DNA from: a virus | Lineage: Duplodnaviria > Heunggongvirae > Uroviricota > Caudoviricetes | Virus record (IMG/VR): IMGVR_UViG_2718218139_000004 | Coordinates: 1-16,560 of that record | Length of the DNA stretch: 16,560 nucleotides | Direction: 5' to 3' (one strand) | Shown: positions 3,001-6,000 of the stretch, piece by piece | Layout: the number at the start of each line of letters is the position of its first letter | How positions within the stretch are numbered: position 1 is the first letter of the stretch | Position numbers: made by a program

Positions 3001-6000
3001 TTTCCATACCTGCAAAAATCTTGTATTTGAATCCGCTTGTATCGGACATATGCATTAAACCACGGGGAGCCAGCAGACCAAAGCCATTATCCGAATTGAA
3101 GGTTTTATCATTACCAATGGCAATGGTTGCGCCATATGCTACATATTGAAATAAGTTTCCAGTAACAGCAGAAACTTCAGGGTATAATCCAACATTAGCA
3201 CCTAAAATATCCATACTTGGTGTCATGGATAGCATCCCTTTTACAGTATAACCGTAGCGATTCTCTATTTGATCATCCCATGCATGATATTTTTCTGCCC
3301 CAATAATCTCATGAGCTTTATTTTGTACTTTCTGACCGCCTGCGTCGGGGCCAACAACACCTATGTCAGTACCTAATCGATAGCGAATCCAGTCATTCGC
3401 AAGGGAGTTCCATTCAATACCAGTGTGAGTGTATGCACTAAAAGCTCTGTCTCCAGTTACAGCTGTGTTGTGTCTTTTATTACTGCCTGATGGAGAGTAA
3501 ATATCTTGCGCAATATGGAGAGATAATTGGCTCGAGTCTGAGATATCGTGGCTATATCCCAGAAATAAGCCTTGTGAGTAATCATCTCTGTTTTCATGTT
3601 TATTGCCATAAATATCATTAAGTATTGGTTGAAACTTCCCTGCATCATCATTTGCTAATGATAATGCAAGGCTGTTCGCGATAGCTGAACACGTGGTAAA
3701 TGACAGAGCAATAAAGACGCCAGCGATGACACTTTTTTTCATATGTTATTGTCTTCCTTTTTTTTGAATGGTGCGCGTATTTTACATACATGAGTTTGTA
3801 ATACAAGGTGCGTAATCAATATGATGTTTTATAATTGCGTGAGACAATTGATTTATTCGTTTTTTTATTGTGGTTTTTATTATCTTTTAATGTAACGGTG
3901 TTTTATTAAGTGTGTTTGCGTGGTGTTTTATGTTTTTATAATTTTTATTTTATTAAATTTAAATGTATTAGTAATGGCTATTCTATATAGCAATATAAGA
4001 ACTGTTACAAAAAAAGGGGGGGCAATTACAGGTAGTTATGGATGATGAGTGAAACAGATTTTGGAGAACCGGGGAATGAATGATGTCTGAGTCTTATATA
4101 TCAGAACTCCTTCGCTGTCGCTGGGGGCTCCTGTGCTTATGTCGTTTCCCCGATTCGGTTTTGAACGATTACCGAATGTTGAAGAATTATGCCAAAATAT
4201 AGAAAGGATTTACTGCATGAATACCCAATATTTACAGTATGTTCGTGAGCAACTTATGGCAGCTACTGCTGACTTGAACGGAGCAACGAAAGGCCAGCTC
4301 GAAGCCTGGCAGGAGCATGCACAATTTGATACTGGTACATACAAACGAAAGAAGCCGCGCATTCTGGATGTGGTAACTGGCAAGATGATTACGCTGGATA
4401 ATACGCCGACTTCCGGTAAGCAGTCGTACGCAAAAGGTTCATCCATTGCTTTGGTCAGCCCGGTTGAATTCTCAACCTCTTCATGGCGCCGCGCGGTTTT
4501 GTCTCTCGATGAACATCAGAAAGCATGGTTGCTTTGGTGTTACAGCGAAAGCGTTCGATGGGGGCATCAGTTCACCATAACGCAATGGGCATGGAGCGAG
4601 TTTAAAGATTTGTTAAGTAACAGAAAAATTGCAGGTAAGACACTGGATCGCCTGAAGACGTTAATCTGGCTGGCTGCACAGGATGTGAAGAGCGAACTTG
4701 CAGGGCGTGAGGCCTATGAATACCAGACACTGGCATCATTGGTGGGAGTGACAACAAAAAACTGGTCCGAGACATTTACTGAACGCTGGGTTGCAATGAA
4801 GCACATTTTTCTACAGCTTGATAGTGATGCTTTATTGCTTGTGACGAGAACACGTTCAAAACAAAAGGCAGCATTTTTACAGCAAAATATTGCAAAACTG
4901 GATTAAAAGCCATATACTTCATGCAAATTTGGTATGTTGTAAAAAATGTATAAACCCGCTGCCGAGTGGGTTTTTTTTATGCCCTGAGTTGTACTTGTAC
5001 GGTAAACATGCTGGCTGCTATGTAATAGAGTTTTTTTAGCCTGTAATCTCTTGACGGCATTGAATTGCTTTTGTTATGAGTTGTAAGCCAATGTTATCAT
5101 CTTGTATTGGGGTGGTTATGAAGGATGGTGCGCTGCTCAGGAGTTCTTCACTTTTTATTGCCTACATGGGATGCCTTGGATGGGGGAGTGCTTATTTCTA
5201 TGGATGGGGTACTTCTTTTTACTACGGCTTCCCATGGTGGATTGTAGGTGCAGGTGTTGATGATGTTGCCAGAAGTTTATTTTTTGCAGTTATCGTCATT
5301 GCTATATTTCTTATCGGTTGGGGTATTGGTGTTGTATTCTTTTTCGCAGTGAAAAGAAAACATTCTATGCAAGAGCTAAATGTATTTCGCCTTTATTTTG
5401 CTGTGGAATTATTGTTTGTGCCGGCAATTATTGAGTTTTCTATATTGAGACAGAAGATTCAGGTACCTCTTTTGCTACTGTCAGCAGCGATTGCGCTGGC
5501 GGTTACAATTTCGATAAGATCTTATGGGCGATTTTTATCGGTATCATGCTTCTATGATAAGCCATTTATAAAAAAACATTTTTTTGAGATTGTGATGATT
5601 GCTTTTGTGGCATATTTCTGGCTTTTTTCATTTCTGACAGGATATTACAAACCACAGTTTAAGAAAGAATATGAAATGATTAATTATAATGATGGTTGGT
5701 ATTATGTTCTTGCTCGTTATGATAATTGTCTGGTTTTGTCTACTTCTTTCAATGCAGGTAGTAAAAGGTTTGTCATTTATCAATCAGCACAAGATAAGAA
5801 TCTTCAGGTTGATATTGTAAGGACCAGAATTTAATTGGCTGCATAAATAATATTTTAAGTTGCAAGTTGGCTATTCGTAGGAATAGAACCTTAGGCATGC
5901 TGAATGCGTTTTCTGAACATTGTTTTATAAACTGTGTCTGCTTGCTGTTGTGATCCTGCTTTTAGTGATGGTGATGATGGATTTCACCAGCAGGATAATG

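Follow-up and report, generated by a model that had tools for sequence, protein, structure and literature searches.

The window, a stretch of 16,560 nucleotides from a decayed prophage (IMG/VR record IMGVR_UViG_2718218139_000004, positions 1 to 16,560), carries the lipid A 3'-O-deacylase gene lpxR on the minus strand. On the plus strand it is followed by a small ylcG-like gene and the late antiterminator gene Q, and further downstream by pch, which encodes a regulator of the PerC family (Table 1). lpxR is annotated likewise in the related sequence L002, in phage 434 and in E. coli O157:H7 Sakai, where it is ECs_0814. Q is described as 'Q82-like' in the phage 434 annotation and matches phage 82 (X92588). 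The ylcG-like reading frame has no Pfam match, and the other small reading frames in the AT-rich gap, of 21-41 codons, are of low complexity only. A search of the whole window against Rfam at gathering thresholds returned no match. The pch gene occupies a cassette of its own, with phage homology stopping at about 8940 and restarting at about 9901, and positions 8951-9414 are 98.5% identical to the DNA upstream of Sakai pchA.

Table 1. Features of the lpxR and pch cassettes and of the adjoining phage DNA, in window coordinates.
Feature	Position	Strand	Details
N-terminal remnant of lambda-type Q gene	2568..2639	+	left border of lpxR cassette
Inverted repeat I18 (hairpin)	2697..2739		just 3' of lpxR stop codon; arms 18 nt, 89% complementary, loop 7 nt
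lpxR, lipid A 3'-O-deacylase	2783..3742	-	Pfam LpxR, E = 6.8e-40
lpxR upstream region, non-coding, very AT-rich	3743..4065	-	27.6% GC, 44.6% T on + strand
T/G-rich core of lpxR upstream region	3865..3956	+	60% T; best local alignment partner of 9286-9366
Sigma-70-like hexamers GTAACA-17-TAGAAT	3980..4008	-	9/12 matches; candidate lpxR promoter only
G7CAATTAC	4016..4029	.	reverse complement of GTAATTGCCCCC at 9250
Phage-82-type backbone	4066-4216		rusA 3' remnant, ylcG and Q ribosome-binding site
Backbone start, rusA 3' end of related phages	4066..4079	+	right border of lpxR cassette
ylcG-like small gene	4080..4202	+	40 codons; RefSeq start 4083; annotated in L001, L002 and phage 434
Q, Q82-type late antiterminator	4217..4906	+	Pfam Phage_antiter_Q, E = 9e-91
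pch cassette, upstream part	8941..9414	+	between Rz-like gene and cos/nu1 side
GTAATTGCCCCC 12-mer	9250..9261	+	polymorphic among pch copies
T/G-rich core of pch upstream region	9286..9366	+	69% T; overlaps most variable pch upstream stretch (9260-9340)
pch, PerC-family regulator, pchA type	9415..9729	+	Pfam PerC, E = 3.8e-44, plus annotation

The gap between lpxR and Q (3743-4216) consists of two parts, the DNA upstream of lpxR and a piece of phage backbone, and is not one 474-bp control region. The boundary between them is where the lpxR cassette ends on the right, and the match to phages and prophages with the order rusA-ylcG-Q begins there, at window 4066-4072. On the left, the ninI-Q homology of lambda, HK446 and mEp234 stops at window 2638 (query position 539), within the Q remnant. 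RefSeq describes this remnant as 'antitermination protein, missing C-terminus', and the annotation of phage 434 has this N-terminal piece of Q as well. Base composition follows these borders, with 23-40% GC inside 2640-4065 against 43-51% in the flanks; the drop to 23-30% GC is confined to the cassette interior, and the backbone from about 4066 onward has 43.7% GC. Homologous phages and prophages that lack lpxR join the flanking modules differently, so that lpxR is an accessory insert relative to them. The lpxR gene therefore forms a small AT-rich accessory cassette, or 'moron', of about 2639-4065, with the lambda-type Q remnant on its left and a rusA'-ylcG-Q module of phage-82 type on its right. 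Just inside its left edge lies the I18 hairpin, followed on the plus strand by TTTATGTTTTTGTT; from its sequence, we consider this repeat a candidate terminator. Like the lambdoid morons bor and lom of lambda, the lpxR cassette is an insert relative to sister phages with a GC content below that of its flanks, is transcribed against the early-to-late direction and lets the prophage confer lipid A deacylation, a function that serves host fitness. The promoter and the terminator of the cassette are candidates only.

The same DNA is found in phage 434 (OL657226), which is 99% identical to window 2122-4950 and has the same lpxR, ylcG-like and Q82-like genes. Both phage 434 and the Sakai prophage Sp3 (ECs_0814-ECs_0815) share the gene order and the cassette borders of the window, and Sakai is 97.6% identical over 3743-4070. 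The prophage in the window is more decayed than either, as its early region has been deleted: a truncated phosphatase gene and the Q remnant come directly after the integrase and excisionase genes. Among 5426 complete E. coli genomes, 619 carry the lpxR upstream region, with one copy per genome, always beside lpxR and at 96.7% identity or more. The upstream DNA of an lpxR homologue with 71% amino-acid identity is unrelated, so no deep comparison is possible. The gain from these comparisons is chiefly a tidier annotation, in which the gap is split into an lpxR upstream region and a backbone with a small gene, and the cassette is tied to the classic phage 434. They also show lpxR and pch together on one decayed prophage, whereas in O157 Sakai the two lie on separate prophages, lpxR on Sp3 and pchA and pchB on Sp4 and Sp11.

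The extreme AT-richness and the T-tracts that were first noted at this locus are borne out. GC content is 27.6% over 3743-4065 and 23% over 3800-3999, compared with 45.7% for the window, T makes up 45-50% of the bases, and about 28% of bases fall in A/T tracts of four or more. Such a low GC content is in keeping with published descriptions of DNA bound by H-NS, Ler and Pch (PMC4764244). A/T-tract phasing, used as a proxy for DNA curvature, is not above that of shuffles, 0.41-0.49 of which reach the AA/TT power at 10-11 bp. The H-NS high-affinity motif TCGATAAATT, allowing up to two mismatches, has no occurrence in 3743-4079 and 17 in the window against 21 expected. With neither a 10-11-bp tract phasing nor a high-affinity match, no classical H-NS nucleation hallmark is visible. 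Helically phased A/T tracts or a high-affinity site are frequent, though not obligatory, at H-NS-silenced promoters.

When the DNA upstream of lpxR and of pch was scanned for promoters and terminators, the counts were likewise at chance level. For sigma-70-like sites in particular, seven were found against 7.7 +/- 3.2 expected, and none stands out. This bears on the view that the gap is a genuinely divergent promoter region, from which ylcG and Q are also transcribed rightward in the decayed prophage, with Q and lpxR under joint control. Since integrase and excisionase genes directly precede the truncated phosphatase gene and the Q remnant, Q has no obvious promoter upstream, and a sigma-70-like site is present on the plus strand at 3796-3825. 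The promoter-like sites on either strand, however, occur at chance frequency, and the viable phage 434 contains the same DNA with no promoter annotated in the gap, so that ylcG and Q are presumably transcribed by read-through from the early rightward transcript, as lambdoid biology would suggest. Moreover, the tables and passages of the Ler-regulon accounts that concern this locus do not name the Q gene beside lpxR, and among genes activated outside the LEE the EHEC table of PMC3891560 lists no prophage gene other than Z0955. We judge a divergent promoter improbable. A single control region of roughly 400 bp serving lpxR and the gene at 4217, as in the original prediction, is likewise not supported, as the ylcG-like gene intervenes at 4080-4202.

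That lpxR belongs to the Ler/Pch regulon is already known from published work and is ordinary biology. A statement in PMC6393859, citing Ogawa 2018, holds that activation of lpxR (ECs0814/Z0955) requires Pch and Ler. The section of PMC3891560 that treats this gene reports a 5-fold activation of Z0955 by Ler and refers to ECs0814 as earlier seen to be Ler-regulated, and independent-component analysis places lpxR within the LEE modulon (PMC9263587). Where Pch and Ler bind within H-NS-bound regions, the GC content is at its lowest (PMC4764244). The lpxR upstream region resembles other promoters of the LEE regulon (for example LEE5/tir, and non-LEE genes such as nleA and stcE) in its very low GC content, its horizontal acquisition and the reported dependence of its gene on Ler and Pch; it differs from them in that no A-tract phasing or H-NS consensus is detected and its promoter is a candidate only.

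Taken together, positions 3743-4065 are probably the upstream DNA of an H-NS-silenced, Ler/Pch-activated lpxR moron, the likeness of which to the pch region is compositional. The region presumably comprises the lpxR promoter and the target of H-NS, Ler and Pch; the regulation comes from the literature, and the promoter position and H-NS binding are what we infer. We propose that H-NS/StpA would coat this low-GC, T-tract-rich DNA and keep lpxR silent, that Pch would activate ler under LEE-inducing conditions, and that Ler together with Pch would displace or remodel H-NS, allowing leftward transcription of lpxR. Positions 4066-4216 would take no part in this as control DNA; they are phage backbone, probably read from the early rightward transcript in the intact phage. 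The idea of H-NS-silenced xenogeneic DNA is accordingly consistent with the composition and with the published Ler/Pch dependence of lpxR, and draws no support from the motifs described below.

The upstream regions of pchA (ECs_1091) and pchB (ECs_2182) are AT-rich and, like the lpxR region, T-rich on the plus strand, and it had been proposed that motifs shared between the two loci place lpxR and pch under common control. The best local alignment of 3743-4216 with 8951-9414 pairs the two T/G-rich cores with a score of 48 and 67 matches in 93 columns (72%), 13 of them gap columns. This is well above dinucleotide shuffles of the whole sequence, which score 23.8 +/- 2.8 and reach 48 in none of 2000 cases, but weak against shuffles that preserve local composition: block shuffles attain 48 in 0.2-2.5% of cases (p of about 0.002-0.025, uncorrected for some ten region and strand combinations), and the significance is lost once these comparisons are corrected for. 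An ungapped identity near 47% is expected from T contents of 60% and 69% alone. As a natural control, we compared both regions with about 116 kb of AT-rich acquired DNA (100 kb from the LEE and SpLE1 of Sakai, and the remainder of the window), in which 48 is the top score for either region. The unrelated DNA upstream of tir (LEE5) is the second-best natural match of the lpxR region and scores 44, natural AT-rich DNA other than LEE5 scores at most 37, and the next best score of the pch region is 35. The similarity also depends on the pch allele: pchA-type alleles score 43-55, the pchB type about 31. A blastn search of 5426 genomes with 3743-4070 as query and 11-base words retrieved no pch upstream region. 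The likeness of the two regions thus lies mostly in a common T/G-richness on the plus strand and not in a conserved shared cis-element, and the score of 48 may contain a small sequence-specific component.

All of the individual strings on which the proposal was built are present, one of them misplaced by a base (the 13-mer begins at 4017, not 4016). GTGTGTTTGCGTGGTGTTTTATG is found at 3910-3932, inside the T/G-rich core, and TTTTGCGTGGTTTGTTTTTTATTG at 9331-9354. Only 17 of 81 pch upstream copies, however, have the 12-mer GTAATTGCCCCC; the prevailing form, carried by Sakai pchA too, is GTAATTGCTCCC. Direct inspection of the DNA upstream of Sakai pchA and pchB confirmed this for pchA and showed that both motifs are missing from pchB. 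The GCGTGG element is replaced by ATATAA in pchB-type alleles and by CTGTGA in other pch alleles, and a divergent lpxR allele (L133) has lost both motifs and carries TTTGTATGGTG. The exact 12-mer is no rarer than chance: some 12-mer is shared by 10-24% of shuffled pairs, a shuffled lpxR-upstream sequence has one in common with the remainder of the window in 78% of cases, and the real lpxR upstream region has seventeen in common with 50 kb of unrelated LEE DNA. The reverse-complement alignment of the two regions scores 24, which half of the shuffles equal. Order and orientation are also inconsistent. The two T/G-rich cores align on one and the same genomic strand, with lpxR and pch on opposite strands, and the 12-mer is reverse-complemented between them, so that no single orientation fits both. 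Conserved neither across pch alleles and paralogues nor in order, and matched about as strongly by unrelated DNA, these strings find no support as shared control motifs.

A narrower version of the proposal holds that one regulator, be it Pch, Ler or another, binds or nucleates at the T/G-rich cores (TGTKTTTGCGTGGT...TTTTAT) of both regions, which would tie lpxR and the pchA-type genes, perhaps with LEE5, to a common input. The excess of the alignment over composition-matched shuffles and its top rank in natural DNA would fit such a site, as would the tir/LEE5 upstream match, which carries CGTGGTG and TGTTTTATTAAG. CGTGGT has an overall frequency as expected, and where the surrounding GC content is 34% or below it is found at only four places in 66 kb, three of which are the lpxR, pch and LEE5 regions. 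Against this stand the vanishing of the significance under correction, the pchB-type substitution, with which the score falls to background (31), and the loss of the element in the divergent lpxR allele. The aligned core points in opposite directions with respect to the two genes, the alignment of the pch region with LEE5 scores only 29, and the 13-mer GTGTTTGCGTGGT is also present in the backbone spacer between nlpA and yicS. The reviews consulted further attribute the activation of pch to LrhA, Lrp and NtrC, with LrhA activating both pchA and pchB, and make no mention of Ler. The published picture is a cascade from LrhA/Lrp/NtrC through Pch and Ler to lpxR and not the common control first suggested, and we regard a site shared by one regulator as very unlikely.

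A real shared motif (TTTGCGTGGT / GTAATTGCCCCC) would have given a sequence-based clue to the target choice of Pch and Ler, which is still poorly defined; the evidence does not bear this out. Somewhat less credible still is a loose element, TGTKTTTGCGTGGT or CGTGGTG followed by T-tracts, upstream of lpxR, the pchA-type genes and tir, at which Pch or Ler would preferentially gain access to H-NS-coated DNA. If it existed, its allelic loss, as in the pchB type, would tune the strength with which the individual copies are connected to the LEE circuit. Least credible is one ancestral promoter module, duplicated or recombined between the cassettes: the 93-column gapped alignment and the exact 12-mer could be read in this way, but the search with 11-base words found no link between the regions, an ungapped identity near 47% is expected from T content alone, only a minority of pch copies have the 12-mer, the flanks of which are unrelated in the two regions, and, as it and the T-rich alignment have opposite relative orientations, no single collinear module holds both.

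The 12-mer was also considered as a cassette junction or att-like site and rejected, as it is polymorphic and internal to both cassettes, 37-48 bp from the right edge in the lpxR cassette and about 300 bp from the left edge in the pch cassette. Within the lpxR region itself, phage 434 and Sakai differ from the window by small changes in the length of T-runs and G-runs. The G-run at 4016 comprises six, seven or eight G among 49 aligned copies and phage 434, and the divergent allele L133 is without the G-run motif.

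The window holds a decayed lambdoid prophage of LEE-positive E. coli, integrated adjoining mdtA. Positions 1-10913 share 99.3% identity with NZ_CP023673, from whose annotation the gene map was carried over. Both lpxR, encoding a lipid A 3'-O-deacylase, and a pchA-type gene of the PerC family of regulators lie on this one prophage (1-10913), whereas in O157 Sakai they are found on separate prophages (Sp3, Sp4, Sp11).

Genes of the prophage in map order
Feature	Position	Strand	Source
integrase and excisionase genes			NZ_CP023673 annotation
Ser/Thr phosphatase gene, truncated			NZ_CP023673 annotation
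antitermination gene remnant, 72 bp	2568-2639		NZ_CP023673 annotation
lpxR	2783-3742	-	NZ_CP023673 annotation; Pfam LpxR
ylcG	4083-4202 as annotated; 4080-4202 as 40 codons		NZ_CP023673 annotation
Q	4217-4906		NZ_CP023673 annotation; Pfam Phage_antiter_Q
lysis genes	after Q		NZ_CP023673 annotation
pch (PerC-family)	9415-9729		NZ_CP023673 annotation; Pfam PerC
ylcI/ynfO, nu1	after pch		NZ_CP023673 annotation

Lambda-type ninI-Q homology stops at position 2638 and phage-82-type rusA-ylcG-Q homology starts at 4066-4072; lpxR and its AT-rich flanks thus form a cassette ("moron") of about 1.4 kb between two backbone modules. Phage 434 (OL657226) is 99% identical to window 2122-4950 and annotates the same set, namely the N-terminal fragment of a lambda Q gene, an oppositely oriented lpxR, a YlcG-like gene and a Q82-like antiterminator. 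The interval 3743-4065 is the non-coding upstream part of this cassette. The original prediction of one intergenic control region spanning 474 bp fails, as the 40-codon ylcG occupies 4080-4202 and the DNA from about 4066 onward is ordinary phage backbone with 43.7% GC. Its description of very AT-rich, T-rich DNA holds, with GC contents of 27.6% over 3743-4065 and 23% over 3800-3999, 45-50% T on the + strand, and about 28% of bases within A/T tracts of at least four. Of 5426 complete E. coli genomes, 619 carry this upstream DNA, once each and always beside lpxR, at 96.7% identity or more; in Sakai it precedes ECs_0814 on prophage Sp3. An lpxR homologue with 71% identity has unrelated upstream DNA. 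A hairpin at 2697-2739 (18-nt arms, 89% complementary) lies immediately beyond the 3' end of lpxR; with a T-rich run after it on the + strand, it may be a terminator at the cassette's left edge.

Helical phasing of A/T tracts was not found in the AT-rich region, and 3743-4079 contains no H-NS high-affinity consensus. Promoter-like and terminator-like matches occur at chance frequency, and Rfam returned no match. A candidate promoter on the - strand (GTAACA-17-TAGAAT, 4008-3980) lies just downstream of a C7T7 run, which reads A7G7 on the + strand (4009-4022).

The pch gene occupies a comparable cassette, with phage homology stopping at about 8940 and restarting at about 9901. The DNA upstream of it shares 98.5% identity with that before Sakai pchA, and 672 of the 5426 genomes contain a pch upstream region. 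The likeness between the lpxR and pch upstream regions is mainly a T/G-rich composition common to both. Their best local alignment, 3865-3956 against 9286-9366, scores 48 (67 matches in 93 columns, 13 of them gap columns), and the aligned stretches contain 60% and 69% T, respectively. This score exceeds whole-sequence dinucleotide shuffles (mean 23.8 +/- 2.8; reached in 0 of 2000) but is marginal against block shuffles of 20-100 nt that keep local composition (means 28-34.5; reached in 0.2-2.5% of trials). About ten comparisons were open to the original prediction, from about six AT-rich non-coding stretches in the window on two strands, which leaves the significance marginal after correction. 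A blastn search of the 5426 genomes with 3743-4070 and 11-base words recovered no pch upstream region.

As a natural control, 50 kb of the Sakai LEE yielded a score of 44 between the lpxR and tir/LEE5 upstream regions. This second-best natural match to the lpxR core (L138, the Sakai LEE DNA, 21912-21967, - strand) has the exact TGTTTTATTAAG and CGTGGTG in common with it and is probably compositional. The matched stretch sits 180-235 bp before the start codon of tir, within regulatory DNA of a Ler-activated operon. A further 50 kb of SpLE1 gave the lpxR region no score above 37 and the pch region none above 35. The lpxR-pch pair is therefore the highest-scoring match within about 116 kb, but its lead over an unrelated AT-rich promoter region is slight.

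All motif strings quoted in the original prediction occur in the window, although the G-run motif was misplaced: G7CAATTAC spans 4016-4029, and the quoted 13-mer starts at 4017. The 12-mer GTAATTGCCCCC (9250-9261), whose reverse complement lies within G7CAATTAC, carries no evidential weight. The reverse-complement alignment scores 24, a value reached by half of the shuffles; some 12-mer is common to 10-24% of shuffled pairs, the lpxR upstream region and the LEE locus have seventeen in common, and the 13-mer GTGTTTGCGTGGT occurs again in the backbone nlpA-yicS spacer. Furthermore, the T/G-rich alignment runs on the same genomic strand in both regions, though lpxR and pch face opposite ways, while the 12-mer is reverse-complemented; the two are not collinear, and no single module holds both.

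Alleles were compared across 80 pch and 54 lpxR loci from IMG/VR. Among 81 copies of the pch upstream region, just 17 carry GTAATTGCCCCC; the majority form at this site, also present in Sakai pchA, is GTAATTGCTCCC, and other copies have GCTCTTT or AGCTCTC. In place of the GCGTGG core, 16 copies have ATATAA and five have CTGTGA. Variation in the pch upstream DNA is greatest at 9260-9340, the rest being 95-100% conserved. Between pchA-type and pchB-type alleles (Sakai L140 and L142), the differences are mainly clustered G-to-A and A-to-G transitions, such as GTGTGTT to GTATATT and GCGTGG to ATATAA. Sakai pchB (ECs_2182) has an upstream region identical to the ATATAA allele. Against the lpxR upstream region, pchA-type alleles score 43-55 and the pchB type about 31, which is background. 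On the lpxR side, the A7G7 run varies among copies (6, 7 or 8 G; 6-7 A), and L133, the most divergent allele, retains neither motif.

A review (PMC6393859), citing Ogawa et al. 2018, states that lpxR needs Pch and Ler. According to Bingle et al. (PMC3891560), Ler activates Z0955 5-fold, ECs0814 had earlier been found Ler-regulated, and the EPEC homologue is strongly regulated. Independent-component analysis placed lpxR in the LEE modulon (PMC9263587). Within H-NS-bound regions, the sites occupied by Pch and Ler are those of lowest GC (PMC4764244). Reviews describe pchA and pchB as activated by LrhA, Lrp and NtrC feeding in further upstream, and the literature presents pchB as a functional activator of the LEE that depends on LrhA. 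As published, regulation passes in a cascade from LrhA to Pch, then Ler and finally lpxR, and is not a common control of lpxR and pch. Reading the DNA in general as xenogeneic, of H-NS type and linked to the Pch/Ler circuit is sound, and was already published for the orthologous locus. Shared control motifs, the new element, are not supported, being marginal under composition-matched nulls, allele-dependent, absent from pchB, not collinear, and paralleled by similar matches to unrelated DNA. It is highly improbable that Pch or Ler entry sites are marked by a loose element of CGTGGT plus T-tracts.

Elsewhere in the window, a promoter-like TTGCAA-17-TATACT (4890-4918) just after Q is followed downstream by a terminator with a 9-bp stem (4952-4973) and the T-rich tail TTTTTATGCC; the layout of 4890-4981 resembles a late promoter of the phage-82 type together with its early terminator. 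A tail-fibre-type ORF contains, at 11211-11521, collagen-like GGN-CCN repeats whose periods range from 9 to 63 nt. A perfect 930-bp inverted repeat joins 14411-15340 and 15631-16560; each arm codes for a 272-aa OrfB transposase of the IS3 family, with rve domains, and the window thus ends in two inverted IS copies.
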